Part shown: in pieces, positions 2,378 to 17,205 of the stretch
Layout of the letters: each line of letters opens with the position of its first letter
Position numbering within the stretch: the stretch's first letter is position 1
NCBI GenBank assembly: GCA_965219685.1
Contig: CBDCOH010000002.1
Coordinates: forward strand, 2,240,001-2,304,000
Length of the DNA stretch: 64,000 nt
Reading direction: 5' to 3'
From: Candidatus Spongiisociaceae bacterium
GTDB taxonomy: Bacteria; Actinomycetota; Acidimicrobiia; Spongiisociales; Spongiisociaceae
Made by a program: the position numbers and the translations under genes
The notes under the pieces: generated by a model
Database searches by the model: none
Seen by the model: only the letters and a program-made list of their open reading frames with translations
What the model was told of the DNA's origin: nothing

Positions 2378-4215
2378 TGCTCCAACCGACGAACCGGCTA
2401 ACGCTCATCAATGCGATGCGTCCGCCGGCCGCGTTCCGGCTCGAATCAGCCATGGCGGTCACGTACACGCTCAACCTGTCGGCACTCCTCGCGGCGCCGG
2501 CCGCATTCGCAATTGCGAGCGTGGGCAACACCACGACCGATGCTGACCTCCAGACCCCTGTGGAGTTGGTCCACGCGCTCCGGACCAACGCCCACAAGCT
2601 CACCGTCTTCAGCGAGGCAGGCGAGATCAGCCTCCCACCGGCCAGCCGAGCCTTTGCCTTCCTAGAACGAGCCGTGGTACCCGTCCGCGCGCCGCGCGGA
2701 GGAATCGTCCATCCCAAGGTGTGGGTGCTGCGCTACGAGGCCTCCGCTGATCTGGAGGAGGTCAGCAAGGGTGACCACCGGCTCCGTGTGATCATCACCA
2801 GTCGCAACCTCACCTTCGATCCGAGCTGGGACACAGTACTGAGACTCGACGAGTCGGCAGATTCGCAGGGTGTAGAGCTCGGCGCGGTTGGTGAACTGTT
2901 CGAGGGACTGCTCGGCGCCGCAGTCGGTGAAATCTCCTCGGATCACTCCGATCGGGTACGTTCGCTGGCCGGAGCGCTGCGGACGGCGCGGTTCGCGCTC
3001 CCCGCCGGGGTCGATGACCTCAGGATTCACGTGTTCGGCCTCACCGCTCAGGACTCACCTCTGCCAACCGAGGTGGACCGGTCGCTGATCATCTCGCCAT
3101 TCGTGACCGACGGCTTCTTCTCCAGGCTGGGTCCACGACCGCTTGATGAACTCGTCAGCCGCCAAGGTGAGCTCGACAAGTTGGCCAAGAGCACGCTTGA
3201 TCCCATCAAGAAGGTCTGGGTCCTGGACAGTACCCTCGACGACCTCAGCGTCTCCGACACCGGCGATGCGCCTGACGACCAGGCGCGACCGCAGTACTCA
3301 CCGTCTGACCCCGGCCGGCCGCTGGTCGGGCTTCACGCCAAGGTCTTCGCCTTCGAACACGACGGTAGTGCCCGGCTGTTCGTCGGATCGGCCAATGCCA
3401 CAGGCCCTGCTTTCAATAGCAGCAACGTCGAGATCCTGGCTGAACTACGCGGGCCGCTTGCCGAGTTGGGAATCGGCCGGCTAACAGAGGGGAACGGGGA
3501 CGAGCCCGGCCTGCGCGATCTATTCGATTGTTACCGCCGCAACTGTCCGGTCCCTCCGAACGGTGACGGCTGTCACAAGCTCGATCCTGCTCGCCGCGCC
3601 ATCGCTCGCCTCCTGTTCAAGGGTTCGGCGGAGAAGAGCGGAGAGGACTGGGCCGTGACGTACTACTCGTCCGAGCCCGTCCCCAAGATCAAGGAAGTCG
3701 AGATCTGCTGCCGGCCGCTCACCAAAGCCGGGGATCGGCGCCGGATCGCACCGGCAGAGCGACTCGAGGAACGCTTCGAGACCAGCCTCGAACGCATGAG
3801 CGGCTTCCTCGCCTTCGAGCTGAGCCATCACTGCGGCGAGCAAACCGGTTTCGTGGTACCCGTGGCTCTCGAAGGTGTTCCCGAACATCGAGACCAGCAC
3901 CTGCTGAAGTTGCTCATCGGTAACGCCGAGCGCTTCCTCCGCTATCTCCTAGCCCTCCTCTACGAGGACTCGCCCCAAGTCGATATCGTCACCGTGATGC
4001 GCGCCATCGACACCGGACAATCAGCCGGTACCAGCGCGTTCAGCCTCGCAGTTCTGGAACGGCTGCTGGGAACCATGCGCCGCGACCCATCGAGGCTTCT
4101 CGGACTGCATCCACTCGTCACCGACCTCAAGGCCGACGACGCCCTTCCAGAGGGTTTCGCCAGACTCTGGGACGCGATTCACAAGGTTGCGGAAGAGGGA
4201 GCCGGTACGCGATGA
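2377..4215 (+). CDS. phospholipase D-family nuclease-like protein with two HKD-type motifs
   Basis: HPKVWVLRY...ITSRNLT and HAKVFAFE...VGSANAT; ATG at 2377 overlaps the upstream stop. Confidence 0.8.
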   Translation: MLQPTNRLTLINAMRPPAAFRLESAMAVTYTLNLSALLAAPAAFAIASVGNTTTDADLQTPVELVHALRTNAHKLTVFSEAGEISLPPASRAFAFLERAVVPVRAPRGGIVHPKVWVLRYEASADLEEVSKGDHRLRVIITSRNLTFDPSWDTVLRLDESADSQGVELGAVGELFEGLLGAAVGEISSDHSDRVRSLAGALRTARFALPAGVDDLRIHVFGLTAQDSPLPTEVDRSLIISPFVTDGFFSRLGPRPLDELVSRQGELDKLAKSTLDPIKKVWVLDSTLDDLSVSDTGDAPDDQARPQYSPSDPGRPLVGLHAKVFAFEHDGSARLFVGSANATGPAFNSSNVEILAELRGPLAELGIGRLTEGNGDEPGLRDLFDCYRRNCPVPPNGDGCHKLDPARRAIARLLFKGSAEKSGEDWAVTYYSSEPVPKIKEVEICCRPLTKAGDRRRIAPAERLEERFETSLERMSGFLAFELSHHCGEQTGFVVPVALEGVPEHRDQHLLKLLIGNAERFLRYLLALLYEDSPQVDIVTVMRAIDTGQSAGTSAFSLAVLERLLGTMRRDPSRLLGLHPLVTDLKADDALPEGFARLWDAIHKVAEEGAGTR

Positions 4216-7200
4216 CCGAGCCTCGCATCGATGTCGCCGCTACGTTGGCAGACCTGAAGGACTTCCAGCAATGCACGGCAAAGTGGGCGTTCAAGCGGAT
4301 GTTCAAGGATAACGATCCGGCGTTACGATTCCTGGTGGCGGACGAGGTCGGCCTCGGCAAGACACATGTGGCCAAGGGCGTAATCGCGCAGGTCATCGAC
4401 CATCTGGGGAGCATCGACGATGAACGCCACGACATTGTGTATGTCTGTTCGAACGGGGCGATCGCCCGACAGAACCTCAGGAAGCTCGCCCCCAAGGGCA
4501 TCAACCCCACCATCGTCGGTGTTGACCGGCTGACCATGCTCCCTCTAGTCGAACTCGACAGCGGAAGAGACGGGCAACCCGGCATCAACCTGTTGGCGAT
4601 CACCCCCGGCACGTCCTTCAAGTTCGGACTCAGCACCGGCAAGTTCACGGAACGCGCCCTCGCCTACGCGTTGTTACGCAGGGCCTGGGGCCCTGAGGTC
4701 ATGAACAAGAGAGCCCGCCACATCTTCTGGTTTGGCCTCACAAAGGGCAGTCCCGCCGACCGGGACAGGCGACTCCAGCGGTGGGGGGAGCACTTCCGCG
4801 ATCGGGTCAGAGTGTCGCGCGAGGAGTTCAATACCCGTTTGGCCCGGGTTGACAGGGAGAGGCGAGGAACCGGCAACCCACCATTGCGACAAGTGTTCGC
4901 CGAACTCGTGGACCGCCTCCGGGTTGAACCTACCTTCACCGGCCGCACCTGGTGGTTGCGGCGACATCTGATCGCGGAGGTGCGCCGGGTCATGGCGCTG
5001 GTCGGTATTGATGCGCTCCGGCCCGATCTGGTGGTACTCGACGAGTTCCAGCGTTTCAAGGACCTGATGCGACCCGATGCCGACGATCTCGCCGGAGAGC
5101 TTGCACAGGGTCTCTTCAACTACCGCGACCCCGAGACCGGGAGGCCGACTCGGACCCTGTTGCTCTCGGCCACTCCCTACCGCATGTACACGACGGCCGA
5201 CGACGCCGACGCCGACCATTACAAGGACTTCCTGGACACCTGCAAGTTCCTCTACCAGGATGCCGAGCGTGTCGAAGGACTGAGACGTCGTTTCGCCGGT
5301 CTTCGCGATGCACTCACCGCGTCGGCTGTGCTCGACGACACCGAGGCGCCGCTGGCTAACGCGGCGCGCATCTGCCACGAGATCGGGTCGGACCTGCGGC
5401 AGGTCATGGCCCGTACCGAGCGGCTGGCTGCTACCCCGGACCGGGACGGGATGCTCGAGGAGCCCACCGTTCCCGTGGCGGTCGCGCCCGACGACATCCG
5501 CTCGTACCTACGCATCGGCGACCTCGCGCAAATCGTCAGCCACCACGATCCCACCGAGTACTGGAAGTCCGCCCCGTACCTGGTGAACTTCATGGAGCAC
5601 TACAAGCTCAAGCAGGCTATAGAGGGAGCTGTCGCGGAGGGCCTATTGGTCGAGGACGGGAGGCTCGACCCGGGTCCCGGCCTGTTGAGTTGGGAGGATG
5701 TGGAGCGTTACCAGCGCGTCGACCCCCAGAACGGGCGGCTTCGATGGCTAACAGACGACCTCGAAGCCTCCCGTGCCTTCGAGCTTCTGTGGGTCCCACC
5801 ATCGATTCGCTACTACGAGACCGGATCGGTCTACGAATCTGCAGAGGCACGCCGGTTCACCAAGCGCCTGATCTTCTCCGGTTGGCGGGTCGTGCCGAAG
5901 GTCGTCTCGTCGCTGGTCAGTTTCGAAGCCGAGCGCCGTGCCTTCGCGAGCCGTGAGCACGGTTACTCGGCCCGGTACCGGCAGCGTGGCGGCCAGCGCC
6001 TCACGTTCCGAACCAGCGAGAGGACAGCCGCGGAGACTCGTGCCGGTGAGTCTTCAGCCGAGCGTCGCGCCGCCTCGATGACGACATTCCTGCTCGTGTG
6101 GCCAAGCCTCAGTCTCGCTGAGGTGGGTGACCCGCGAGCGCTGCAATCCGAACGACGGGATCGCGATTCCGTGATCGCCACAATCTCAGCGCGAGTGGAA
6201 GCGGCTCTTGAGCCACTCGCTCGCTCGGCACCCTCCGAGGGACCGGTCGATCGGCGCTGGTACTGGGCCGCCCCGCTGCTGTTTGATCACCAGCGTCACC
6301 GTACGGTTGTCGACCGGCTGCTATCCGACCGGTCGGCAGGGCTCTGGGAGGGCGATAGGGCCGACGTGAACTTCCGGGCGCATCTCGCCGAGGCCCGAGC
6401 CATGGTCGAGTACGGGCCGACAGCCCTCGGACGGCGTCCCGAGGACCTCTACGAGGTGCTGGCCGAACTGGCGCTCGGTGGGCCGGCGCAGTGTGCGCTC
6501 CGGGCGGTCAACTCGGTCGTGGGGCTTCCCGCCGCTCATGAGTCGGTGCTGTCGAGCGCGATCCGAATCGGTGAGGCCTTCAGGAGCTTCTTCAACGCCC
6601 CGGAGGTGACAGCGTTAGTCACTGCCGCTCGATCGGAGCGACCCGGCTCCGAGGGAGGCGTTGCCCGGTACTGGCGTGAGGTCGTGGGTCATTCGATCGA
6701 CGGGAACCTGCAGGCCTTGCTGGACGAGCACGCTCACATCCTGCGCGACTGGCTCGGCTACGTCAGCCTCGACGGCGCAGAGCAGCGAACCAAGGCCGCC
6801 GGTGGCATCGCCTCCACGATCGGTGATGCGCTGAGGCTCCGGACCTCTGCGCTGCGGGTGGACATCCCTCGCCGCAGCGATCACGATGACGGCATCGAAC
6901 TGGAGGATCACCGCATGCGCTCTCGCTTCGCGGTGGCTTTCGGCGATCAGGTGCTCGACGAGGGAGGCCAAGCCCGGGTGGGCGCCGTGTCGGTGGCTTT
7001 CAACTCACCCTTCTGGCCGTTCGTTTTGACCTCGACCTCGGTCGGGCAGGAAGGACTGGACTTCCACCTGTGGTGCCATGCGGTGGTGCACTGGAACCTT
7101 CCCGCCAATCCCGTCGATCTCGAGCAGCGTGAAGGCCGAGTCCATCGGTACAAGTGTCACGCGGTCCGTCGCAACATCGCTGAGAAGCTCGGATCCGATC

Positions 7201-7565
7201 TGGTGAAAGACGGGACACCGGAAAGCGATCCGTGGCAGGCGCTCTTCGAGCGGGCGGCATCCGAGAGGGAACCCGACGACGGGGAGATGGTGCCCTACTG
7301 GGTGTTCCATCAGGGCCGGGCGAAGATCGACCGCCTCGTTCCGGTGCTTCCGTTCAGCCGCGAGTCGGCGAGACTTCCCAGGTTGCGGAAGTCCCTCGCC
7401 GTCTATCGCCTCGCCTTCGGCCAGCCCCGCCAGGAGGAATTGGTCGAGTTCCTAGGCGACCGCATCAGCCCCGAGCAGTTGCAGCGCTGGCTCTCGCAAC
7501 TTCGCATCGACCTGTCGCCCCCGAACGTGCCGGAGCATTTACCAAGCGGGGTTTCAGAAGCTTGA
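4212..7565 (+). CDS. superfamily 2 helicase
   Basis: ADEVGLGKT, DEFQ, LSATP, GQEGLDFH, EQREGRVHR; ATGA overlap with the PLD gene. Confidence 0.9.
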   Translation: MTEPRIDVAATLADLKDFQQCTAKWAFKRMFKDNDPALRFLVADEVGLGKTHVAKGVIAQVIDHLGSIDDERHDIVYVCSNGAIARQNLRKLAPKGINPTIVGVDRLTMLPLVELDSGRDGQPGINLLAITPGTSFKFGLSTGKFTERALAYALLRRAWGPEVMNKRARHIFWFGLTKGSPADRDRRLQRWGEHFRDRVRVSREEFNTRLARVDRERRGTGNPPLRQVFAELVDRLRVEPTFTGRTWWLRRHLIAEVRRVMALVGIDALRPDLVVLDEFQRFKDLMRPDADDLAGELAQGLFNYRDPETGRPTRTLLLSATPYRMYTTADDADADHYKDFLDTCKFLYQDAERVEGLRRRFAGLRDALTASAVLDDTEAPLANAARICHEIGSDLRQVMARTERLAATPDRDGMLEEPTVPVAVAPDDIRSYLRIGDLAQIVSHHDPTEYWKSAPYLVNFMEHYKLKQAIEGAVAEGLLVEDGRLDPGPGLLSWEDVERYQRVDPQNGRLRWLTDDLEASRAFELLWVPPSIRYYETGSVYESAEARRFTKRLIFSGWRVVPKVVSSLVSFEAERRAFASREHGYSARYRQRGGQRLTFRTSERTAAETRAGESSAERRAASMTTFLLVWPSLSLAEVGDPRALQSERRDRDSVIATISARVEAALEPLARSAPSEGPVDRRWYWAAPLLFDHQRHRTVVDRLLSDRSAGLWEGDRADVNFRAHLAEARAMVEYGPTALGRRPEDLYEVLAELALGGPAQCALRAVNSVVGLPAAHESVLSSAIRIGEAFRSFFNAPEVTALVTAARSERPGSEGGVARYWREVVGHSIDGNLQALLDEHAHILRDWLGYVSLDGAEQRTKAAGGIASTIGDALRLRTSALRVDIPRRSDHDDGIELEDHRMRSRFAVAFGDQVLDEGGQARVGAVSVAFNSPFWPFVLTSTSVGQEGLDFHLWCHAVVHWNLPANPVDLEQREGRVHRYKCHAVRRNIAEKLGSDLVKDGTPESDPWQALFERAASEREPDDGEMVPYWVFHQGRAKIDRLVPVLPFSRESARLPRLRKSLAVYRLAFGQPRQEELVEFLGDRISPEQLQRWLSQLRIDLSPPNVPEHLPSGVSEA

Positions 7566-8855
7566 TAATGCGTGTGTTGACTCATCCGGACTGGCCCGGG
7601 TCCACAGGCGGTCTACCGGCAGGGCGATGATGCTGGCGTCTGCGCCCTTGTAGCGAATGCAGTGAGGACCCGTGTACAGCACCACACCGACCATGAACCG
7701 ATCACCGAGGGTGTCGCGCAACATGCGTAGGCCGCGCCGGTCCTTCGGGTAGATCCTCGAACCGGCCTTCACTTCGATACCGACCACCGAGCCGTCCCGA
7801 CCGTTCTCCATCACGACATCCACCTCGGCGCCGTCGTGCGTTCGCCAGTGTCCGACGTGAGGCCGGTGCTCCATCCAGGACGCCTGCTTGAGGATCTCGC
7901 CCACGACGAAAGTCTCAAGCAGATGCCCGAACTGTTGCAGGGCCGCCGGATCCAGAGCCGACAACTTGTCGGGCGGGAGGCGGAGCAACCGGGCAGCCAG
8001 ACCAGAGTCCGTGATGTGCAGTTTGGGACGCGAGCTGGTCGCCGACCGTAGCGTCCTTCCCCAGGCAGGCAGCAGGCGCACCAGGAATCCGGACTCGAAC
8101 AGCTTTACGTAGTCGGATGTGGTGCTGGCAGCCAGTCCTACCGCCCGGCCGGCGCTCGACATGTTGAGAACCTGAGCCGTCTGCGACGCCAAGCGCGCGA
8201 GTAGTTGCGCAAGCGCCGCAGGCTGCCTCACGCGACCCTCCTCCAGGAGATCACGTTCCAGGCAGAGAGCCAGGTAGTCATCGAACCAGCGAGCCCGCGC
8301 CGGCCCGGTGCGCGCCAACGCCAACGGGAACCCGCCCCTTGTGACGAGGTCCACATACTCGTCCCGTGTGGTTGCCGACGGGTCCGGTGAGACGATCGAA
8401 CCAGGATCATCCAGTAGCGCCTCGACCATATTCTCCCTCTCCCCGCCGATCTCCCCTTGGGATAGCGGAAGGATCTCCAGCCGGTGCAGGCGGCCGGTCA
8501 GCGACTGCGCAGCGAGGGGTAAGGAGTCGAAACGAGTGGAACCTGCGAGTACAAACCGGCCCGGAGACCCGTCGAGGTTCAACTCGGCCTTGATCGAGTC
8601 CAGCAGGACGGGGACATGCTGGTACTCATCGATGAACACCGGTCCGCGGCCTGCGACGAACAGCCCGGGATCGTCGCTGACCGCCGCCCGAACTGCCGGA
8701 TCGTCGAAATCCACCACACGCCCGCCGTACCGGTCAGCCAGTATCCGCAGCAGCGTGGACTTGCCGACGGAGCGCGGACCCTCGAGCAACACCACCGGCG
8801 ACTCGGCCATACGACAAACGACGATATCCTCCAGCCGCCGAGGGACCAACTCCAC
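7554..8855 (-). CDS. AAA+ ATPase with DUF4143 domain (COG1373 type)
   Basis: GPRSVGKS, IDEYQ, GGFP, PKLHITDSG, ETFV, EVD...GIEVK nuclease-like tail. Confidence 0.9.
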   Translation of the reverse strand: MELVPRRLEDIVVCRMAESPVVLLEGPRSVGKSTLLRILADRYGGRVVDFDDPAVRAAVSDDPGLFVAGRGPVFIDEYQHVPVLLDSIKAELNLDGSPGRFVLAGSTRFDSLPLAAQSLTGRLHRLEILPLSQGEIGGERENMVEALLDDPGSIVSPDPSATTRDEYVDLVTRGGFPLALARTGPARARWFDDYLALCLERDLLEEGRVRQPAALAQLLARLASQTAQVLNMSSAGRAVGLAASTTSDYVKLFESGFLVRLLPAWGRTLRSATSSRPKLHITDSGLAARLLRLPPDKLSALDPAALQQFGHLLETFVVGEILKQASWMEHRPHVGHWRTHDGAEVDVVMENGRDGSVVGIEVKAGSRIYPKDRRGLRMLRDTLGDRFMVGVVLYTGPHCIRYKGADASIIALPVDRLWTRASPDESTHALSSF

Positions 8856-8865
8856 GATCAGGCAC

Positions 8866-8990
8866 CCTTCCGTGAATCTCCCAGTTATTCTACCGTGAAA
8901 TACATGGCCTTTCTACCGGTATACTCAGGAATGATCTGCCGTGACTTCCAAGTACTCCACCGGCAAAGGTCCGAGGATTTCACCCGGTCG
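8866..8990. repeat. degenerate array with ~23-bp period, core TCTACCGTGA
   Basis: Cores start at 8866, 8889, 8912, 8935, 8956 and 8980, immediately upstream of the ATPase start. Confidence 0.7.
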
Positions 8991-9073
8991 ACCACCCGAT
9001 CCCCGAACCAGACGTGGACCTCGCTCTGGCGGCTCGTCGCGGCGCCTGTCTCAAGCGCGGCAGGGGCGCAACC

Positions 9074-10357
9074 TCACTCCCACAAGAGGGAGATCGGGGC
9101 GGCCCATATGCGATCGCTGATCTCGATGACCGGGGAGCCGGAGTAGAGGATCACACCAAGGTCGAACTTGGGGAACCACCTCCGTTGGTCGGCGTCCATC
9201 CGGTCGCGCAACCACTGCAGATGACGGGCGTCACGGCGGGTGACGGCACTCGACGCCTTGACCTCGACTGCGATCAGGCTGCGGTCACGGCGGTTCTCCA
9301 CCAACAGGTCGACCTCTCGTTTCGCTTGGTCCCGGTAGTGGTAGAGGGCGTAGTCGTGGCCGGATGCGTCCCGCTGAGCCCGTAGTTGCGACACGACGAA
9401 GGTCTCCATGAGGTTCCCGACGAGCTTGGAGTCGGCACGCACGTCTTCAGGGCCCACCCCCAGCATCGCGGCCCACATTCCCGCATCGTTGACGAACCGC
9501 TTTGACCGCTTACCGATACGGCTCGAGATCGTCCGATGCCAAGCCGGAACCTGTGAGACCACGTACGAGTTGTGCAGAGCCTGTTCGTACTTCTCGGCCG
9601 AGACCCGCGAGATGTCGGAGCGCTCTGCCAGCGTGGTCTGGTTGATCATCTCCGACGAGTTGGCAGCGTACACGTACAGGAAGTCGAGCATCTTCCGATG
9701 GTCGATGCGTCCGGTCGCGGCGTCCAGCCGCACGATGTCGCGCAGGGCGCCTTCCATCTGCTTCCGCCGGCGCGGGTGGTCCGCGACCCTCAGGTAGGCC
9801 GGATAGCCGCCCTCCAAGGCTATGTCGATGTAGTCGTACAGGCCGAGTGTTCGGGCCGGCGCGGAGGCCCGACGAATATCGGCGAGCCGATCCACGAAGG
9901 AGTGGAGCGGATTGCGGCGCTTCTCCGCCACCGTCAGCGGATGCATCTCCAGGGTGACCCCGCGGTGCACGAGCGGCCATTGATTGCTGTCATCGCGATC
10001 GTTCGGACGGATACGAGAAGAGCCGGCGATGACGAACCCCTTCATCGAGTCCTGATCGACCAGCTTCTTCACCACCCAGAGCACATCCGGGACCTGCTGC
10101 CATTCGTCGAGCAGGACGGGCTTCTTCGCGCCCCGCAAGGCAGCCTCCATGTCCAGCACGAACGCCGAGCGCTGTTGAGGCTGCGACAGGTCGATTGCGG
10201 ATTCGACCACCCGCAGGGCGGTGGTCGTCTTGCCGACGCCGCGCGGTCCGGTGATCACTACCGCCGGCCAGGTATCTAGTTCGGCGCGAAGCCTCGCGTC
10301 GATGCGCCTCGGCAGGTAGCCGGAAGGACCGGAGCGATCAGAGTGACGGCGGCGCAT
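9074..10357 (-). CDS. AAA+ ATPase with DUF4143 domain (COG1373 type)
   Basis: GPRGVGKT, LDEWQ, GGYP, ETFV, EVDLL...AVEVK. Confidence 0.9.
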   Translation of the reverse strand: MRRRHSDRSGPSGYLPRRIDARLRAELDTWPAVVITGPRGVGKTTTALRVVESAIDLSQPQQRSAFVLDMEAALRGAKKPVLLDEWQQVPDVLWVVKKLVDQDSMKGFVIAGSSRIRPNDRDDSNQWPLVHRGVTLEMHPLTVAEKRRNPLHSFVDRLADIRRASAPARTLGLYDYIDIALEGGYPAYLRVADHPRRRKQMEGALRDIVRLDAATGRIDHRKMLDFLYVYAANSSEMINQTTLAERSDISRVSAEKYEQALHNSYVVSQVPAWHRTISSRIGKRSKRFVNDAGMWAAMLGVGPEDVRADSKLVGNLMETFVVSQLRAQRDASGHDYALYHYRDQAKREVDLLVENRRDRSLIAVEVKASSAVTRRDARHLQWLRDRMDADQRRWFPKFDLGVILYSGSPVIEISDRIWAAPISLLWE

Positions 10358-10410
10358 GTGGCTTCTCTCTTCCCGGGGCAGATGCAGAGACGACGAGACC
10401 CGATTCTCAG

Positions 10411-10487
10411 CAGGACGACATCCTGATCGTATACAGATCGGACCTGATAACCTAGGCAGATTGAACTATCTATCGTATGCAGATTGT
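10411..10487. repeat. degenerate array with 23-bp period, core CAGATTG
   Basis: CAGGACG 10411, CAGATCG 10434, CAGATTG 10457 and 10480; units 1 and 3 also share ATCGTAT. Confidence 0.7.
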
Positions 10488-10694
10488 CGCGTCGAGAGAT
10501 CGCCAGGCTGCCAGGAGACCCAGACCTGAGTCCCGGGTCCGGATGATCCCGGAAAGCCGCTGCGAGGCGACCAATAGCAAACCACGTCCGGCTTCATCGG
10601 AGATCCGACCTCCCGCAGTGTCGAGGGCGGCTACGCGTTTGAAGGGGCCACGGATGCCGATGACCCGGGTCCGGTTGACAGCGAGGATCAGCGG

Positions 10695-11450
10695 CTAAGG
10701 GGAACGGCGTTTCCGCCTTGTCGGAGACCTCGGGATCGGTGACGAGATGTAGTCCGCGTCACCGGTCTGGTAGATCGTGGCGGGACGTCCTCCTCCCGCG
10801 CTCGGATCGGTGCGGCCGCCGGTTGAGCGGAGATAACCGGGAGTCCTGGTGACTTTGCGGTGGAAGTTGGCAGGCTCGAGACGGGCATTCCACACCGCTT
10901 CGTAGACCCGGCGCAACTGGCTGATGGTGAACTCAGGTGGGCAGAACTGCGCGGCGAGCGTGGTGTATTCGAGCTTGGACCGCACGCGCTCTACCGCCTC
11001 CTTGATGATCTTGGCGTGGTCGAAGGCCAACTCCAGAGCGTCGGCTTCGACCATGACGACCGGAAACAGATCCGCGTCGGCGGCGTCTCCGCCTCCCCGC
11101 GGTTCGGGGAGGTTGGCGAGGATGGCCCAGTAGGCAACGGTGACCACCCGCATCCGGGGATCGCGGTCGGGCGTGCCGTACGTACCGAGTTGCTCGAGAT
11201 ACGCCTGATCGGCCGCTATCCCGGTCTCCTCTTCCAATTCCCGCCGGGCTGCCGCCTTCAGATCCTCGTCGGGACGCACGAAACCGCCCGGCAGCGCCCA
11301 GCGCCCCTTGTAGGGATCCTGCCCGCGCCGGACCAGGAGGATCTGTAGTTGGTCGCCGACGATGGTGAACGTGACCACGTCGACAGTGACCGCGACCGGC
11401 GGGTACGCGTGGGGATCGTATCCGCCGGGGGCCTTTGTGTCACACCCCAT
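10695..11450 (-). CDS. nrtR: NrtR-type Nudix-related transcriptional regulator
   Basis: Nudix box WALPGGF...ARRELEEETG, EQLGTY..PDRDPR, LAFDH, wHTH NFHRK...GGRPA; TATGAT 7 nt before ATG (leaderless). Confidence 0.8.
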   Translation of the reverse strand: MGCDTKAPGGYDPHAYPPVAVTVDVVTFTIVGDQLQILLVRRGQDPYKGRWALPGGFVRPDEDLKAAARRELEEETGIAADQAYLEQLGTYGTPDRDPRMRVVTVAYWAILANLPEPRGGGDAADADLFPVVMVEADALELAFDHAKIIKEAVERVRSKLEYTTLAAQFCPPEFTISQLRRVYEAVWNARLEPANFHRKVTRTPGYLRSTGGRTDPSAGGGRPATIYQTGDADYISSPIPRSPTRRKRRSP

Positions 11451-11474
11451 CCTTACAATCATACCAAGTTTGTG

Positions 11475-11547
11475 TTGACAGGATAAGAACCGGCACGGAT
11501 AGTTCTTGCCAACCGGACACTAAATAGTTATTGTCATAACGGAATAA
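11475..11547 (+). promoter_or_regulatory. sigma70-type promoter and candidate NrtR operator
   Basis: TTGACA(11475)-17 bp-GATAGT; AT-rich dyads GTTATtgtcATAAC and TTATT-N10-AATAA at 11527-11547. Confidence 0.5.
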
Positions 11548-11621
11548 ACCTGTGCCTGCGGCGTTGTACCTGATACGGGGCCGTTTGCGCACCCGAGCCA
11601 CCCCTGACCGAAGGAGATACA

Positions 11622-13235
11622 TTGACTGACGCGACCGTTACCGAGCCCACCAAGCTCTGGTTCCTTCTCGACCGTTCGGGATCGATGAGCCGTCTGACCC
11701 AGGATGTGATCGGCGGGTTCAACACGTACATCGCAGAGCAGGCGCAGGAATCCGGAAGCGCGCACCTGACCCTCGTACAGTTCGACAGCCAGGCCCCGTT
11801 CGAGATCATCCACGACGCTGCGCTGATCGAGGATGTCCCGCCACTCACCACCAGGACCTACAGCCCACGAGGCTCCACCCCTCTGCTGGACGCCATCGGT
11901 GATCTGATCGAACACGCTGACCGGCGCATCGCCTCTCGATCCCGCAAGGAGCAGCCGGCCGAAGACCAGCTGGTCGTGATCTTCAGCGACGGGCTCGAGA
12001 ACGCCTCCCGCCGGTTCAACCGGGCGAGGGTCGCAGATCTGATCAGCATCCGGCAGGAAGCCGGTTGGGAGTTCGTGTTCATGGGCGCCAACCAGGACAG
12101 CTACCTAGAAGCCGGACGCATCGGAGTCTCCCGGGAGAGCATCTCCAACTTCACCGCCACCGAGGCGGGCACAGCGGCGGCGTTCCAGTCGATCTCGCGT
12201 GCCACCAGGGAGTACCGGGGTAAGACCAGGATCGAACGGACGAGAGACTCCGGAACCTTCTTTGGCGGAACCCGTGAGGCGGAGGCCGTGATGCGCAGGC
12301 GCGGCGAACGTGGCGGGGTCGTCCCGAGGCCGCGTCGGGGCATCCCGAACCTGGAGCAGGCATCGGTCGGTCGACCGATCACCCGCCTGGGCGTCTCCTT
12401 CTTCCCTGTTTACCTTCCCGGGAACGACCTCCCGGACATCGCTACCGGACGGAACGCTGGTCTGGTCATCGAGGAACTCCCCGCCTCGAGGGTCCCGTTC
12501 CTCGGCGTGACGAATCAGACGAACGTACCGGTGCTGATCCCCGAGGGAGAACAGCTGATAGGCGGCCTGCAGGACCGGGTGCTCAACACGAGCGTCCTAG
12601 TCCCGCCCTCCACCTCTATCGACATACCTGTGTCATGCCTCGAGCAGGGACGATGGGGAGATCGCCGCGGGTTCGAACGCGGCCATGCGTACGCGCCGCG
12701 ACGCACCCGGAGGGCGAAGAACGCGTCGGTGTTCGACTCGGTGCGCCGGGAAGGGTCTCGTCGGAGCGACCAGGCGGCCGTCTGGAACACGATCGACCGC
12801 GAACTCGCGCACCGGGGGGTTGACTCCCAGACGAGGGCCGCGCGGGACGCCGAGCGGTTCCTCCGCCGCGACCGGCAACGCGCCGAGACGATCCGACGCC
12901 TCGTGAGGCGGGGACCGTTACCGGGCCAGTGCGGCATTGCGGTGACCCACGGCAGGCGCGTGGTGGCAATAGAGGTGTTCGGCAACCACGACCTCCTCGT
13001 CCCCCACTGGGAAGGGTTGGTCCGCTCCTACCTGATCGAGCGACGGACCGCCAACGGCCATCCCTCGGCAACCAGGGTCCTGCACATCATCAGCCGTTTC
13101 GCCAAGTCGCAGGCTCTGCAGAACCGGGGACTCGGCCTGGGCACCGAACTGCATGTGAGCGGCCGCCGACTGGTGGGCCAGGCACTGGTCCACGAAGGCG
13201 CCGTCGTCCACGCGTCCGGATTCACGATCGGCTGA
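11622..13235 (+). CDS. vWA domain fused to an ARPP-1 (DUF6569)-like domain
   Basis: MIDAS DRSGSM, DAIG, SDGLENAS; C-terminal EGEQLIGGLQDRVLNTSVLV...IPVSCLEQGRW; AAGGAG RBS. Confidence 0.75.
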   Translation: MTDATVTEPTKLWFLLDRSGSMSRLTQDVIGGFNTYIAEQAQESGSAHLTLVQFDSQAPFEIIHDAALIEDVPPLTTRTYSPRGSTPLLDAIGDLIEHADRRIASRSRKEQPAEDQLVVIFSDGLENASRRFNRARVADLISIRQEAGWEFVFMGANQDSYLEAGRIGVSRESISNFTATEAGTAAAFQSISRATREYRGKTRIERTRDSGTFFGGTREAEAVMRRRGERGGVVPRPRRGIPNLEQASVGRPITRLGVSFFPVYLPGNDLPDIATGRNAGLVIEELPASRVPFLGVTNQTNVPVLIPEGEQLIGGLQDRVLNTSVLVPPSTSIDIPVSCLEQGRWGDRRGFERGHAYAPRRTRRAKNASVFDSVRREGSRRSDQAAVWNTIDRELAHRGVDSQTRAARDAERFLRRDRQRAETIRRLVRRGPLPGQCGIAVTHGRRVVAIEVFGNHDLLVPHWEGLVRSYLIERRTANGHPSATRVLHIISRFAKSQALQNRGLGLGTELHVSGRRLVGQALVHEGAVVHASGFTIG

Positions 13236-13296
13236 ACAGGAGGAACGAACCGGCGGGCGGTGGGTGAGTGCCTGGCTCACCGCTCGCCCGGAAGGA

Positions 13297-13893
13297 TCAG
13301 AAGGAAGGCGGGGAGGTGACCACCAGGAAGCGGCAGACCCCCTGACCCACGGCTGTCATCGTGTGAGGAGTCATGGCCGGGTACGTCAGCACGTCGCCGA
13401 CGGCCAACTCCACCGGATCCGAGCCCTCGAGCTCCATCCGCAGACAGCCCTCCAGAACGTATATCAACTCTTCGCCCTCATGGCCGGCGTTGACCGTACC
13501 GGCGCCGGGTTCGAACTGGACCTCGTTCGGCTCCATCAGGTGGGAGCCTCCCCGGGTCAGGAACCGGACCGATCCACCCTCCACGAGCTGGTAGGTCTCC
13601 CCTTCGCCGTGACGGACCAGGCTGATGTCCCACTGCTCCTCAGGTTGTAGAAGGCTGTGAGCAGTGGTTTCGAGAGCTTGGGCGACGTAGTGAAGAGCCA
13701 TGAGGCTAGGCATAGCCTTGCCGTTCTCAAGTTGGCTGAGGAAGGGCTGGGAGAGTCCGCAGCGGGAGGCGAGTTGCTGGAGTGTGAGTCCCTGCGCCTT
13801 GCGAAGTCTCCGGAGCGCGGCTCCCAGGGTGGCGGCCACCGCCTCCCCGTCCACCGGTCGGGCCTGCTTGCCAGGCGAGGTTTCACCAGTCAT
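13297..13893 (-). CDS. XRE-family regulator with cupin domain
   Basis: HTH LTLQQLASRCGLSQPFLSQLENG; cupin HEGEELIYVLEG...PH. Confidence 0.9.
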   Translation of the reverse strand: MTGETSPGKQARPVDGEAVAATLGAALRRLRKAQGLTLQQLASRCGLSQPFLSQLENGKAMPSLMALHYVAQALETTAHSLLQPEEQWDISLVRHGEGETYQLVEGGSVRFLTRGGSHLMEPNEVQFEPGAGTVNAGHEGEELIYVLEGCLRMELEGSDPVELAVGDVLTYPAMTPHTMTAVGQGVCRFLVVTSPPSF

Positions 13894-14015
13894 AGCCCGA
13901 TGCTACCGCCCGGAAGGGCTTGTCTTGAGTCGACAGCAGGCGCGCGGACCGGGACGGTGGAGCCCTAGCGCCATCGGGTAAGCCACGAGCCTGAGATAGC
14001 GGATTCGACCAAGGC

Positions 14016-15740
14016 TCACAACCCGCCGGATAGGGCATCAATTCGCCTCACGATATGCAAGGCGATCATCGCGCTTGCTCGATCTACATCCGGACTGCGG
14101 GATTCAACTTCGGAATAGTCCAAGCTGAGATCGAGATCGGGGATCGGTTTCTCGTCGATTGTCACTGTTCGAGACCAACCTTCACCTCTGAATTCCCACT
14201 TAATAGATAGAATGATACTGAACCCTGTTTTCCCGGTGCCCGTATAATCAATCAACCTGTAGTCCTGCCTCACTTCGACCTGCTGGTCGTCATTCAGCTC
14301 GAATCCTCGTGATATAATGTGATGTTCTTTTGTATTCTCCCAGTTCCTCGGTTCCAGAAGAGCCATAGAACTGGTTTGCTGATGTCGGTAGCTAATGTAG
14401 CCGGTCTGTCCAAAGGTACGAAACAGCCCCTTCGCCATATTGCTGACTGTTAGTTCCAATCCATCAAGCAACGGACGAATAAATGTATAGAAGACGTTAT
14501 CCAGTATCTCGATACCTAAGGTATCCGGCTCCGGTCCTCTACGTCTTTCGATAAACTCCGCTATCTCCCGTTCCGTGTCTAGTCGCTGAAGTAGCCCAGC
14601 TAGATCAGCCAAAGGCACTACTTCATAGTTGCTCCGCGATTGACGTGTCGTACCTCCGTAGACAACTGCCTTCATAGAGACATTTGGAACAAGGTCCGTG
14701 ACGCGATCCAGGGAACGAGAGTAGTCCGACGTGATGGTAGAACCGGACTTGACCTCAATAGCATAGATACCGTCACCGGTTTCATAGAAGAGGTCACACT
14801 CCAAGCCCTTCGAATCACGAAAAAAGGAGAGGTTGGAGTCGTAGCTTCGATTGAAACGGTACTTGAGGGCCTCAGCCACGACCGTATTCTCGAAAAGGGC
14901 GCCGCGTAGCGGATGAGTAGCTATCTGGTCGGCGTCTTCGATACCGATTAGATAGCTAGCGAGTCCGACATCATAGAAATAGAGTTTTGGTGATCTGATC
15001 AACCTCTTACGGATATTGGCGTGAAATGGTCGTAGCTGGAAGGCTATGTAACTCCTTTCCAGAACAGTCAGCCATGCTCGTGCCGTGGTGTGCGACACTC
15101 CTGCATCCGAACCCAGCGAACTGAGGTTGAGCAATTGGCCGACCCGTCCGGCGCAGAGCCGGACGAAGAGACGGAAACTCGACAGGTTACGTATCTCGCC
15201 TAGCCGGCGAACATCGCGCTCGACGTAGGTCTCGTAGTAGTCACGGAGGCTCTGGCGCGGGTCGAGTCTTCGATCATGAATCCGGGGATAGAAACCCGAG
15301 AAGAGGATATCGTCTACCGCGTTGCTCGCGCCTGTTCTTCTTCGTTCCGATAGGGAGAACGGCAACAGACGCAGGAGTGCTGTTCGACCAGCCAACGACT
15401 GGCTGACGGAGTCGGAGAGTCGGAACTGCTCGCTGCCGGTGAGTACAAACAGACCGCTTCGACCGCTCTCGTCGGCTAGGACCTGCAGATACGATAGGAG
15501 CTTCGGTACGTACTGTATCTCGTCGATGACCGCAGCCCCGTTGAACTGCGCAAGAAAGCCCCGAGGGTCGGCCTCGGCGAAGTCCCTCACGTCGGGAGCC
15601 TCCAGATTGGCGTATTCCAGATCAGGAAAGGCCGCTCTACACAGGGTTGTCTTGCCGGACTGCCTTGGCCCCGTAACTGTCACGAAGGGATATTGTCGGA
15701 ACAGCGCGGTCAGATGACCGGTGATTTCCCTCTCGATCAT
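14016..15740 (-). CDS. AAA+ ATPase with DUF4143 domain and extra C-terminal domain
   Basis: GPRQSGKT, IDEIQ, YYETYVERDV, PKLYFYDVG, AIEVKS, then ~190 further residues on lower-GC DNA. Confidence 0.9.
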   Translation of the reverse strand: MIEREITGHLTALFRQYPFVTVTGPRQSGKTTLCRAAFPDLEYANLEAPDVRDFAEADPRGFLAQFNGAAVIDEIQYVPKLLSYLQVLADESGRSGLFVLTGSEQFRLSDSVSQSLAGRTALLRLLPFSLSERRRTGASNAVDDILFSGFYPRIHDRRLDPRQSLRDYYETYVERDVRRLGEIRNLSSFRLFVRLCAGRVGQLLNLSSLGSDAGVSHTTARAWLTVLERSYIAFQLRPFHANIRKRLIRSPKLYFYDVGLASYLIGIEDADQIATHPLRGALFENTVVAEALKYRFNRSYDSNLSFFRDSKGLECDLFYETGDGIYAIEVKSGSTITSDYSRSLDRVTDLVPNVSMKAVVYGGTTRQSRSNYEVVPLADLAGLLQRLDTEREIAEFIERRRGPEPDTLGIEILDNVFYTFIRPLLDGLELTVSNMAKGLFRTFGQTGYISYRHQQTSSMALLEPRNWENTKEHHIISRGFELNDDQQVEVRQDYRLIDYTGTGKTGFSIILSIKWEFRGEGWSRTVTIDEKPIPDLDLSLDYSEVESRSPDVDRASAMIALHIVRRIDALSGGL

Positions 15741-15759
15741 GCGTACAGGCTACCAATCC

Positions 15760-15796
15760 TGGTACACATTGCAAGTAGTACTTTCAATGTGTACCA
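15760..15796. promoter_or_regulatory. 37-bp near-perfect palindrome upstream of the third ATPase
   Basis: TGGTACACATTG-C-AAGTA-G-TACTT-T-CAATGTGTACCA. Confidence 0.75.
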
Positions 15797-15810
15797 ACTA
15801 GGTCGGACTG

Positions 15811-17205
15811 CTAGACGAGTCCGATCCGTCCGAGGAGATCGCGGGCGCGGGCGCGGGCTTCGGAGATCACGTCGTCCTGGTCCACCTGGGTGCACCGCCC
15901 GTCCTCGACGATCACCTGCCCAGCGACGATGTTCATCGTCACGTCGCTTCCGCGGGCGGCGTAGACCAAGGCGGTGCGGGGATCGTGAACGGGGGTCAGA
16001 TGGGCGCGGCTCGCATCCAGGACGATGACGTCCGCAAGGGTCCCGGGAACCAAGCGACCGGTGTCTAATCCGAGCGCGTCCGCCCCGCCCGCAGTGGCGA
16101 TGCGTAGTGCCTCCGCAGCTGATGACGCCCCCGGGTCGAGTTCCGCGAGCCTGTGCATGAGGACCAGCATCTTCATGTTCTCGAAGAGGTCCTGGCGGTG
16201 GCCGCAGGTCGATCCGTCGGTCCCGAGCCCGACCGTCGCTCCGGCCTGCAGCAGTTGCCGCATGGGCATCACCCCGTAGGGCACGTACTGGTTCGACATC
16301 GGGCAGTGCACCACCGCCGTCCGCGTCGATCCGATGGCCTCGATCTCCTCCCCATCCAGCCAGGTGGCGTGCGCCAGAACAGCCTCGGGACCCAGCAAGC
16401 CCTCGTTGTGCAACCAGGTTGCGGGGCGGACCCCGTATGCCTCCCGGTACACGTCGGGATCGCCCTTCGGGGCGCTCAGGTGGGTATGCCAACCCGTCCC
16501 GTACGACCGGGCCAATTCGACCGCGGCCACCAGGAGGTTCTGAGCCGTGTAGACCGCGTTTATCGGCCCGGGCCATACCGCCACCCGGGAACCCGGAGGC
16601 CGCGCCTCGAGGCATGCCTCCGTGATGTCCAACTCCTCGGTGTCGCTGAGCGGGAATGCCCTTTCCGGCAACCCCTGACGCTCGGCCAGAGGCGTGTAGC
16701 CGCCGGCCATGCCCCTCGCCACCACCCCCCTCAGCCCAACCTCCTCGATCGCACTCGCCACAGCCAGCGTGGTGTCATAGTCGGTGCGGCCGTAATGGTG
16801 GTCGAGCAGCGCAGTGGTTCCTGCCAGTGCCGCCTCCACCGCGCCCAGGTACACCGCCGCTTTCGTCTCCTCCGGGGTGATCTCCGCGGCGTAGGGCCAC
16901 ATGAACCTGCTCAGCCACTCCCAACCAGGCAGACCCTCCCCCAGCGTGCGTCCCAGCGACTGGAAGAGGTGGTTGTGGCAGTCGACCAGCCCCGGCATCA
17001 GCAACCGGCCCCGGCACGAGATCACCCGGTCGGAGCGGTACACGGACACCTCGTCCTTCGTGCCGACGGCGACGATCCGCTCCCCCGCGATTGCCACAGA
17101 CCCGGCTTCGATCACAGGGCGGGACGGATCGAGGGTGACGAGTGTGCCCGCCTCCAGCAGCAGATCGCAGTGCTCGGGTCTATCGGCTATCGACACGCCC
17201 TCCAT
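15811..17205 (-). CDS. metal-dependent amidohydrolase (MTA/SAH deaminase, Atz/Trz type)
   Basis: PGLVDCHNH, HTHLS, LAHATW, HCPMSN, GLGTDG. Confidence 0.9.
   Translation of the reverse strand: MEGVSIADRPEHCDLLLEAGTLVTLDPSRPVIEAGSVAIAGERIVAVGTKDEVSVYRSDRVISCRGRLLMPGLVDCHNHLFQSLGRTLGEGLPGWEWLSRFMWPYAAEITPEETKAAVYLGAVEAALAGTTALLDHHYGRTDYDTTLAVASAIEEVGLRGVVARGMAGGYTPLAERQGLPERAFPLSDTEELDITEACLEARPPGSRVAVWPGPINAVYTAQNLLVAAVELARSYGTGWHTHLSAPKGDPDVYREAYGVRPATWLHNEGLLGPEAVLAHATWLDGEEIEAIGSTRTAVVHCPMSNQYVPYGVMPMRQLLQAGATVGLGTDGSTCGHRQDLFENMKMLVLMHRLAELDPGASSAAEALRIATAGGADALGLDTGRLVPGTLADVIVLDASRAHLTPVHDPRTALVYAARGSDVTMNIVAGQVIVEDGRCTQVDQDDVISEARARARDLLGRIGLV

Follow-up and report, generated by a model that had tools for sequence, protein, structure and literature searches.

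Phased and palindromic upstream elements as candidate autoregulatory operators of PDC-S01 ATPase-nuclease genes

Results

Three paralogous ATPase-nuclease genes in a defence island

The window analysed here is a stretch of 64,000 nt from Candidatus Spongiisociaceae bacterium (assembly GCA_965219685.1, contig CBDCOH010000002.1, positions 2,240,001-2,304,000 of the forward strand). Three minus-strand genes, g1 to g3, adjoin an Azaca defence system in this window. The first, g1 (7554..8855; 433 aa, GTG start), encodes an AAA_14 ATPase, a wHTH, and a PD-(D/E)xK (DUF4143) nuclease, with Pfam E-values of 5e-19 for AAA_14 and 3e-38 for DUF4143. The corresponding values were 3e-14 and 1e-36 for g2 (9074..10357; 427 aa, ATG at 10357), and 2e-24 and 2e-48 for g3, whose open reading frame spans 14016..15740 (574 aa, ATG at 15740) and carries the ATPase-nuclease core in its first 390 residues (14571..15740). 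All of these matches exceed the curated cut-offs, and the three proteins share 28-30% pairwise identity. Each also matched PADLOC PDC-S01 (E 1e-139, 2e-94, and 3e-92 for g1, g2, and g3), with end-to-end coverage of model PDLC04790 (1-420, 13-427, and 1-379, respectively). By sequence, g1, g2, and g3 are intact AAA_14-DUF4143 ATPase-nucleases of the PADLOC candidate PDC-S01.

The g3 core is 72-79% identical to its orthologs L016, L052, and L033, which lack the C-terminal extension of about 185 aa encoded by low-GC DNA at 14016..14570 (GC 0.50 at 14001-15000). Nucleotide homology to the orthologs (blastn) stops at position 1131 of the gene, the extension has no Pfam match, and no homolog of similar length was found.

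The original prediction had assigned these proteins an AAA+ domain, a wHTH middle, and a PD-(D/E)xK-like tail, and this picture held at the level of both residues and modelled fold. Among 54 sequences (g1 numbering), Walker A residues G26, G31, and K32 and Walker B residue D76 were invariant and E77 was at least 90% conserved, while all Walker residues were invariant in 16 paralogs from the same genome. The predicted nuclease residues follow an E...D...ExK pattern in which E344 was invariant and D346, E361, and K363 were at least 90% conserved. An AF2 model of g1 (pLDDT 94.2) placed a winged helix between ATPase and nuclease (wHTH residues 232-281) and a beta-sheet nuclease core at residues 333-362. 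Foldseek neighbours included Orc1/Cdc6 and STAND NTPases, with the best matches (TM 0.40-0.50 by target) to the archaeal AAA+ ATPases SSO1545 (2fna) and PABY2304 (2qen), which are themselves uncharacterised.

In one published account, PDC-S01 ranks fourth by abundance among predicted prokaryotic defence systems, with about 39,000 instances, a quarter of them archaeal, and, like most such candidates, it awaits experimental validation and has no mechanism (PMC12988326). The architecture given there and in a second source is an ATPase fused to a PD-(D/E)xK nuclease (PMC12988326; PMC3424549). Genomes of this genus contain 12-33 family matches each, the chromosome studied here carries 18 such genes, and relatives are also present on viral contigs. 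The Azaca-adjacent setting is suggestive of an anti-phage role for g1 to g3.

Each gene has its own upstream element

The element upstream of g1 (8866..8944, minus strand) is a run of four direct repeats whose period is exactly 23 bp. The cores TCACGGCAGA, TACCGGTAGA, TCACGGTAGA, and TCACGGAAGG occupy 8935-8944, 8912-8921, 8889-8898, and 8866-8875, so that their minus-strand starts (8944, 8921, 8898, and 8875) are 23, 23, and 23 nt apart, and the array ends 11 nt from the GTG at 8855. Self-match at lag 23 was 58%, compared with 54% at the 99.9th percentile of random windows. Orthologs L019 (80% protein identity) and L035 retain the core, for which the ortholog consensus is TTTCACGGTAGAA, and the exact 12-mer has a single genomic copy.

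The g2 array consists of three 23-bp units (10418..10486, minus strand) that begin with CAATCTG, CAATCTG, and CGATCTG at 10486, 10463, and 10440, again 23 and 23 nt apart, and its core reads CAATCTGC(A/C)TA(C/G)G. A 15-mer, CA/GATCTG.ATACGAT, recurs in units 1 and 3, which creates a 46-bp super-period; it is unique in the genome. Self-match at lag 23 was 58%, and ortholog L021 (74%) retains units 1 and 2. At 72 nt from the ATG, this array is more distant than most.

In place of an array, g3 has an 18+1+18 operator-like palindrome (15760..15796) 20 nt upstream of its ATG, with arms at 15760-15777 and 15779-15796 that are complementary at 17 of 18 positions (94%). It scored 15 where the 99th percentile of 300 random windows was 9. 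The half-site ATTGAAAGTA occurs at the same position in orthologs L052 and L016, and related palindromes lie at about -50 to -65 across the g3 subfamily, 30 of whose 74 members beat all 40 shuffles; none of the 74 has a lag-23 array. The proposal that each paralog carries its own structured element, with g1 and g2 sharing a period but not a core, is thus confirmed in the reading of all three.

The 23-bp period is a hallmark of the family

Thresholds for self-match at lag 23 were set from 3000 random windows (99th percentile 50%, 99.9th percentile 54%). Along the whole 4.39-Mb contig only three regions reached 70% lag-23 self-match, and all three are upstream of DUF4143 genes. Tandem Repeats Finder (TRF) at score 30 did not detect the g1 or g2 array because only the cores repeat. 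Half of the paralogs in this genome (9/18) exceeded the 99th percentile at lag 23, while none of the 18 did so at lags 19, 20, 25, or 26. The same threshold was passed at lag 23 by 38 of 77 genes from six related genomes, compared with five at lag 22, three at lag 20, and at most one at any other lag from 10 to 40. In one subfamily, drawn from more than 10 phyla and one archaeon, it was exceeded by 71 of 79 relatives, compared with 5 of 79 for a coding-region control. Relatives on viral contigs did so without exception (19/19), as did 9 of 18 relatives of g1 and 8 of 10 more distant relatives of g2. Of the 76 genes tested in the six genomes, 26 lacked both an array and a strong palindrome. Autocorrelation upstream of homologs, proposed at the outset as a check, was therefore positive, with 23 bp the one lag that peaked sharply, and the period is a specific hallmark of this family.

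A period that is fixed across phyla whatever the core points to a geometric constraint, such as that of an oligomer. This raises the possibility that the protein binds the array chiefly as a platform, on which the ATPase-nuclease would nucleate or be parked, or be held inactive in a defence switch until competing foreign DNA or damage releases or activates it; alternatively, the array might serve as a self tag. The wHTH belongs to the effector itself and not to a separate regulator, all paralogs conserve the ATPase and nuclease residues, the surroundings are those of a defence island, and a few arrays are far larger than an operator needs (14 units in L067, 7 in L250). However, arrays of 73 relatives have 3-7 units and 64 of them have only 3-4, too few for protein storage, the elements are placed exactly at the putative promoter, and the whole g3 subfamily uses a simple palindrome typical of dimeric regulators. 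We consider a platform or tag unlikely to be the main role.

Cores are private to ortholog groups and travel with the gene

At least nine distinct cores occur in this one genome. Motif similarity was high only in the 13 pairs whose proteins are 70% or more identical (mean 10.3, compared with 5.4-5.8 in lower bins). Across species the cores are fixed while the spacers drift, such that conservation is confined to the cores rather than extending over whole units. Bipartite units occur in groups C, F, and I. Long cores of 12-15 nt were found solely at their own promoter; shorter cores were no commoner elsewhere in the genome than expected by chance, and counts allowing one mismatch did not exceed the base-composition expectation. 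The idea that each gene has its own site is supported in that orthologs have a core in common, the cores of paralogs are unrelated, and each is unique genome-wide.

Among non-syntenic orthologs, nucleotide homology runs from the element to near the stop codon, beginning at -70 for g1, at -65/-55 for g3 (the outer edge of the palindrome), and at -75 for the paralog own_2055653. Such a block of element plus gene within differing flanks is what would be expected if the elements were recombination or mobility sites of a one-gene cassette with the nuclease as homing or insertion enzyme, as would the family's copy number within the genus, its presence on viral contigs, and its conserved nuclease. 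However, the element is at one end only, with no inverted or direct copy 3' of the genes in a repeat search of 7000-16500, and core searches returned promoter copies only. Several ortholog groups are also syntenic (for example, the L009 group) and no target duplications were seen, making a mobility site improbable.

Several arrays overlap putative promoters

Arrays ended a median of about 30 nt from the start codon. Among low-GC relatives, 25 of 46 had a recognisable promoter, with the -35 box within the last unit in 13, just past the array in 5, and in earlier units in 7. A consensus scan, a method that is unreliable in high-GC genomes, gave no promoter in 60 of 92 arrays and no promoter-like site upstream of g2 or g3. 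Within the g1 array, the scan matched a promoter-like site at 8887..8915 (minus strand; a pattern match at 9/12 positions) with a putative -35 box TAGAAA in unit 2 (8915-8910), a 17-nt spacer, and a putative -10 box TAGAAT in unit 3 (8892-8887).

In g1, then, one repeated hexamer forms both putative boxes, and 23 bp is the start-to-start distance between -35 and -10 hexamers (6+17). The phase of the -35 box also matched that of the unit in 10 of the 25 relatives, compared with about 3.3 expected by chance. These observations would fit arrays that are bound by another factor, such as a host factor or RNA polymerase, or that arose merely by tandem duplication of promoter DNA. However, units do not in general resemble TTGACA, with a median best match of 3.4/6 compared with 3.33 for permuted targets, and no neighbouring gene is common to the paralogs. 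Because the genome has at least nine unrelated, ortholog-group-specific cores, one external factor cannot account for them all, and we regard this explanation as very improbable.

The repeats could alternatively act as RNA, either as a repetitive leader or as an antitoxin RNA processed by the nuclease. In the type III toxin-antitoxin system ToxIN, a tandem-repeat RNA is encoded upstream of the toxin gene, and the arrays resemble it as direct repeats immediately 5' of a nuclease gene; some even reach the ribosome-binding site. They differ from ToxIN in period and family, and in 18 of the 25 low-GC relatives the recognisable promoter coincides with the last unit or follows it, which would leave most units untranscribed. 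Nine arrays folded no better than shuffles (z +0.83 to -2.2), Rfam gave no match, conservation is limited to the cores, and no terminator-like site was found between element and gene (8856-9073, 10358-10694, and 15741-15810). An RNA role is the least probable of the explanations considered.

Discussion

Each element is best explained as the predicted operator of its own gene's product, mediating autoregulation and probably repression, a reading to which we assign a probability of roughly 0.6. Overlap with the putative promoters favours regulation over self-marking or mobility, and the modelled position of the wHTH, a DNA-binding module in a suitable place in the protein, also counts for an operator. 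The wHTH, which lies between the ATPase and nuclease domains, would read the unit core; on the phased units several protomers would align in register, and on the palindrome a dimer would sit. The unit nearest the promoter would overlap the -35/-10 region, and its filling would then set the gene's own transcription, most likely by repression, and operator and gene would be inherited and transferred as a single block. Cognate binding and its cooperativity, like any part played by ATP and the direction of the regulation, are features that we infer.

The original prediction had called this a candidate undescribed system, a label that does not fit the protein family, already listed as PDC-S01, but may apply to the cis element. 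Our literature search found no description of 23-bp arrays or palindromes upstream of PDC-S01 genes. Although the three proteins match the PDC-S01 models end to end and share the same ATPase-nuclease architecture, the available part of the system's description defines it by protein alone and does not include such elements.

Several known systems offer partial parallels. Theta-plasmid iterons are direct repeats of about 17-22 bp, often beside a rep gene that they autoregulate. The arrays resemble them in having 3-7 head-to-tail repeats of lineage-specific sequence, spaced roughly two helical turns apart, beside a gene for a winged-helix protein. Unlike iterons, they accompany an AAA+ ATPase-nuclease rather than a Rep protein, there are 18-20 copies per chromosome, and the 23-bp period is kept across phyla. 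A replication origin at each array is ruled out by the presence of 18 such genes, nine with arrays, on one chromosome.

Orc1/Cdc6 and DnaA, which bind origin recognition boxes and DnaA boxes, share the domain order of an AAA+ module, a helical lid, and a winged helix. Foldseek matched 1fnn and the Orc1-DNA complex 2v1u with probability 0.99, although TM-scores were low (0.23-0.25). The bipartite units are as expected for a two-point contact, but the proteins studied here have an extra nuclease domain and their sites are at their own promoter rather than at an origin. Autoregulatory operators of defence and toxin-antitoxin loci lie at the system's own promoter, and here too a sequence-specific site, unique in the genome, would overlap the gene's promoter. 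In contrast to those operators, the effector itself carries the DNA-binding module, and a set of phased direct repeats usually takes the place of a single palindrome.

The 23-bp cis element provides a first concrete handle on the PDC-S01 family: it predicts that these proteins are sequence-specific DNA binders and names the exact candidate sites, and the arrays suggest the number of aligned protomers. Private elements could explain how dozens of paralogs coexist in a genome without cross-talk, and may supply synthetic biology with many naturally occurring protein-operator pairs that are probably orthogonal. For annotators, 23-bp arrays belong to the DUF4143 gene. A bolder view, which we offer speculatively and would not bet on, is that array and gene form a self-contained, horizontally mobile operator-nuclease module in which the 23-bp phasing templates an ATP-dependent, initiator-like oligomer, and assembly at the protein's own promoter is the sensing and firing switch of this very common bacterial and archaeal candidate defence family, not merely a repressor site. 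If so, the hundreds of lineage-specific cores would amount to a naturally occurring library of protein-DNA pairs orthogonal to one another.

Covariation between HTH and motif was weak (rho 0.11), with HTH windows ranking only 9th-11th of about 100 sliding windows and those at residues 393 and 21 correlating better, and rho was about 0 in the genus set. Anecdotally, proteins whose recognition helix starts with NRTT had the core GTAGG in 6/6 cases, and those starting with ARST[IL]R had AAAGYGGAG in 5/5.

Three PDC-S01 paralogs, each behind its own upstream element

Three genes on the minus strand, g1 (7554-8855), g2 (9074-10357), and g3 (14016-15740), encode AAA_14 + DUF4143 proteins, with Pfam matches to both domains above curated cut-offs in all three. 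PADLOC models for PDC-S01 cover the proteins end to end (E = 1e-139, 2e-94, and 3e-92, respectively), and on these model matches all three are PDC-S01 members. PMC12988326 ranks PDC-S01 fourth in frequency among prokaryotic defence candidates, with validation pending, and in PMC3424549 DUF4143 appears among the PD-(D/E)xK families as one with no known function. Pairwise identity among the three proteins is only 28-30%; despite this, all three retain the Walker A (G26, G31, and K32) and Walker B (D76 and E77) residues as well as nuclease residues E344, D346, E361, and K363. No useful NCBIfam model was found for these genes.

An AlphaFold2 model of g1, built with 54 homologs, had a mean pLDDT of 94.2 and a pTM of 0.93. 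The model predicts an ATPase core and helical lid, a winged helix-turn-helix whose helices span 232-238 and 243-255 and whose wing strands span 259-262 and 278-281, and a nuclease core made of a beta-sheet. It bears out the AAA+, winged-helix, and PD-(D/E)xK-like layout put forward in the original prediction. The closest PDB neighbours found by Foldseek were 2fna and 2qen, uncharacterised archaeal AAA+ ATPases, followed by STAND NTPases (CED-4, plant NLRs, and Avs4), RuvB, and Cdc6/Orc1, the last including the Orc1-DNA complex 2v1u. Searching the PDB with the family sequence profile returned nothing beyond generic P-loop matches. A two-copy complex prediction for g1 scored 0.00, which counts for neither side.

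Upstream of g1, the minus-strand cores TCACGGCAGA, TACCGGTAGA, TCACGGTAGA, and TCACGGAAGG start at 8944, 8921, 8898, and 8875, a spacing of exactly 23 bp, and the GTG of the gene (8855) lies 11 nt past the end of the array. The g2 array consists of CAATCTG, CAATCTG, and CGATCTG at 10486, 10463, and 10440, with a 15-mer common to units 1 and 3. The element of g3 is a palindrome at 15760-15796 (18+1+18, with 17 of 18 positions complementary), with the ATG 20 nt further. TRF with a minimum score of 30 reported neither the g1 nor the g2 array, because their repetition is confined to the cores; arrays were therefore detected by a lag score, the self-match of upstream DNA shifted by a given number of bp. 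At lag 23 both g1 and g2 scored 58%, compared to 54% for the 99.9th percentile of 3000 random windows, and across the 4.39-Mb contig only three regions reached at least 70% self-match, all three upstream of DUF4143 genes. The g1 and g2 arrays are not due to chance. Coordinates and chance controls thus bear out the claim of three paralogs with a structured element each: a common 23-bp period with unrelated cores, exact over four units in g1 and three in g2, and a 37-bp palindrome before g3.

These genes had been proposed as an undescribed system. The proteins belong to the known PDC-S01; the repeats are the better candidate for that description, since they went unmentioned in the titles, abstract openings, and passages covered for the family (DUF4143, COG1373, PF13635/PF13173, and PDC-S01).

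The 23-bp period recurs across the family

The window's genome contains 20 DUF4143 matches in 4.4 Mb, treated as 18 places after counting a split gene once and dropping one sub-threshold match. At lag 23, nine of the 18 scored above the 99th percentile of random windows, and at lags 19, 20, 25, and 26 none did; the arrays in this genome all differ in sequence from one another. DUF4143 genes are heavily expanded in the genus, with 12-33 matches per genome in seven congeners (G001-G007). Outside the genus, in the same family or order, 9 of 13 genomes searched had no match and the other four had 1-14.

From five related genomes we added another 60 loci, leaving out G005 (a near-duplicate of G006), the fragmented G001, G003, and G007, and two regions of G009, and counted only genes with a Walker A motif (n = 77). 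Lag 23 was above threshold in 38 of these, lag 22 in five, lag 20 in three, and any of the remaining lags between 10 and 40 in one at most. Units number 3-6 per array in the genus, and the distance from array end to start codon is usually 5-60 nt.

Beyond the genus, we took one subfamily, the relatives of five of the genome's own paralogs (n = 79), whose record titles place them in Acidimicrobiia, Solirubrobacterales, Chloroflexi, Gamma- and Deltaproteobacteria, Gemmatimonadota, Bacteroidota, Spirochaetes, Firmicutes, Lentisphaerae, and one Methanomassiliicoccaceae archaeon. Here, lag 23 surpassed the 99th percentile of each sequence's own shuffles in 71/79, compared to 2-11 for other lags and 5/79 for coding regions of the same subfamily. 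Arrays could be called in 73/79, with three units in 43, four in 21, five in 7, and six and seven in one each. All 19 relatives on viral contigs with upstream sequence had an array, and so did 9/18 relatives of g1 and 8/10 of g2 from other parts of the phylum, at 36-58% identity; this count excludes two loci whose genomes are flagged as unpublished. The autocorrelation check suggested for homologs returned a sharp 23-bp peak, above shuffles and the coding control, and the lag-23 array is a hallmark of the family, no local oddity.

Certain arrays are amplified: the DUF4143 gene L067 (G010:C1:804584-806945) is preceded by 14 units of 24 bp that are nearly identical, L075 (G009) has six near-perfect 23-bp units, and L250, from a viral contig, has seven. 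The number of units per array is evidently not stable. Two unit types alternate as A/B at 10418-10486 of the window and in L023, L057, L074, and L139, giving a 46-bp super-period, a hint that two protomers may together form the functional unit. In L002 (G000:C2:1353651-1355846), a 22-bp periodic repeat with 73% self-match overlaps the assigned start codon; translation probably begins further downstream, and this gene is probably one of the array-bearing class.

Palindromes instead of arrays in the g3 subfamily

Of 80 metagenome relatives of g3, 74 had usable upstream sequence. None of these reached a lag-23 score of 0.54, and in 30 of the 74 a palindrome at about -50 to -65, with a common half-site of the form GCAAWTTGAAAGT, outscored every one of 40 shuffles. 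Three genus orthologs of g3 keep the half-site ATTGAAAGTA, with L052 and L016 carrying it at the same position. Among array-less genes of the six-genome set, 7/33 had a palindrome score of at least 10 (control 99th percentile, 9). Because the g3 subfamily is without arrays and has palindromes, the family has two candidate operator architectures.

The g3 protein also has a C-terminal extension of ~185 aa (14016-14570, minus strand), encoded in DNA with a GC content of 0.50 compared to ~0.64-0.66 around it. Its orthologs are 389-402 aa and do not have the extension, which had no Pfam match and no homolog among those of similar length. A 577-aa open frame is also present in a same-genus genome.

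Array cores are private to each gene and its orthologs

At least nine unrelated cores occur within one genome, and therefore no common host factor reads them all. Among 703 array pairs, motif similarity averaged 10.3 in the 13 with at least 70% protein identity and 5.4-5.8 in every lower identity bin; by this measure, array cores track orthology. When units were aligned, cores were constant and spacers drifted. The core of g1 and its orthologs is TTTCACGGTAGAA; further examples are AAAGTGGAGT, TGTAGGA, CAGAACGCGCG, and the bipartite AGCGAAA...CACTAGAC, and two g2 units are retained in the ortholog of g2. In a genome-wide search, cores of 12-15 nt were absent from the rest of the genome, while those of 9-10 nt, and likewise one-mismatch counts, were at or below the base-composition expectation. 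Their uniqueness marks them as private sites, not regulons. Orthologs in different flanks showed nucleotide homology from the element to near the gene end, beginning at -70 (g1), -65/-55 (g3), and -75 (a further pair); judged from these homology blocks, the inherited unit is the candidate operator plus its gene.

Taken as sequence evidence, the cores, their orthology, their uniqueness, and the homology block point to the adjacent gene's own product as the reader of each array. The idea that every paralog has its own site is upheld by cores that are kept among orthologs, unrelated among paralogs, and private in the genome.

A match between recognition helix and motif was less distinct. In the genus set, identity of the HTH segment bore no relation to motif similarity outside orthologs (rho ~0), and in a subfamily set of 88 proteins the HTH-motif rho was 0.11, a value that many other windows matched or exceeded. 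Within the latter set, pairs with at least 6/8 recognition-helix residues in common had a motif similarity of 7.15 compared to 5.86; HTH windows ranked 9th-11th of about 100 sliding windows, behind those at residues 393 and 21. All 6/6 proteins whose helix begins with NRTT had GTAGG cores, and 5/5 with ARST[IL]R had AAAGYGGAG, suggestive pairings that are both confounded by descent.

Array position is consistent with an operator

A single promoter-like site lies near g1 on the gene's strand, with a -35-like TAGAAA in unit 2 and a -10-like TAGAAT in unit 3. Boxes can fall in successive units since a 6-nt box and a 17-nt spacer add up to 23. We surveyed 46 arrays from low-GC relatives, where sigma-70 promoters are recognisable, and found a promoter-like site in 25 (clear examples are L133, L145, L124, and L148). 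The -35 box was in the last unit in 13 of these, just past the array in five, and in earlier units in seven, and the -10 box mostly ended 4-33 nt from the start codon. In 10/25 cases the -35 box was in phase with the units, compared to 3.3 expected by chance. That units are generally -35-like was rejected, with a median best match to TTGACA of 3.4/6 compared to 3.33 for permuted hexamers (maximum, 3.71). In L133, L145, L146, L236, and L139, the -10 box ends 4-6 nt from the start codon, so these mRNAs are probably leaderless or nearly so.

From the -35 placement in low-GC relatives, most units would be untranscribed DNA, at and upstream of the -35 box. Nine arrays folded as RNA were no more stable than shuffles (z, +0.83 to -2.2), Rfam gave no match at E up to 1 in 7000-17000 of the window, and a search for a terminator-like site between array and gene found none. 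A ToxI-like RNA was rejected for these elements. A general upstream activating array with its promoter downstream is unlikely, because the median distance between array end and start codon is 30 nt, which leaves little room. Unit placement fits an operator that would occlude RNA polymerase, with recruitment less probable.

We favour, at roughly 60% probability, a reading in which each gene carries a predicted operator of its own, bound by its own product, for autoregulation that is probably repression. The product would bind the element at its own promoter, cooperatively and with a role for ATP, and occlusion of RNA polymerase would repress the gene; we infer the sign of regulation. The main rival, which makes the array a component of the actual defence switch, seems improbable to us. 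Like iterons and operators, these elements are phased direct repeats beside a gene for a winged-helix protein; unlike origin iterons, they number many per chromosome, which rules out that identity. The original interpretation is supported in part, for the period, the own site per gene, and the domain layout; the binding, oligomerisation, and functional roles it proposed are putative. Autoregulation by the gene's own product would attach operator or iteron logic to a very abundant, uncharacterised ATPase-nuclease family.

Genomic neighbourhood

A complete Azaca operon occupies 1139-7565 on the plus strand (ZacA, 1139-2377; ZacB, 2317-4215; ZacC, 4212-7565), and ZacC and g1 converge tail to tail with a 12-nt overlap of their 3' ends (7554-7565). 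According to the preprint, Azaca is anti-phage, and ZacA, ZacB, and ZacC jointly cleave phage DNA in vitro (bioRxiv 10.1101/2025.07.10.664194).

The g1-g3 region is a defence or conflict island. Three genes separate g2 from g3, beginning with an NrtR-like Nudix + winged-helix regulator (10695-11462, minus strand) that has a weak PADLOC match to PDC-S07. Divergent from it is a VWA + ARPP-1 protein gene (11622-13235, plus strand), with three promoter-like sites in the 11415-11534 gap, and together the two resemble a candidate conflict module linked to NAD/ADP-ribose. The third gene, encoding an HTH_31 + cupin regulator (13297-13893, minus strand) matched by PADLOC HTH and CapH-like regulator models, is flanked by the ARPP-1 gene on one side and by the 3' end of g3 on the other.
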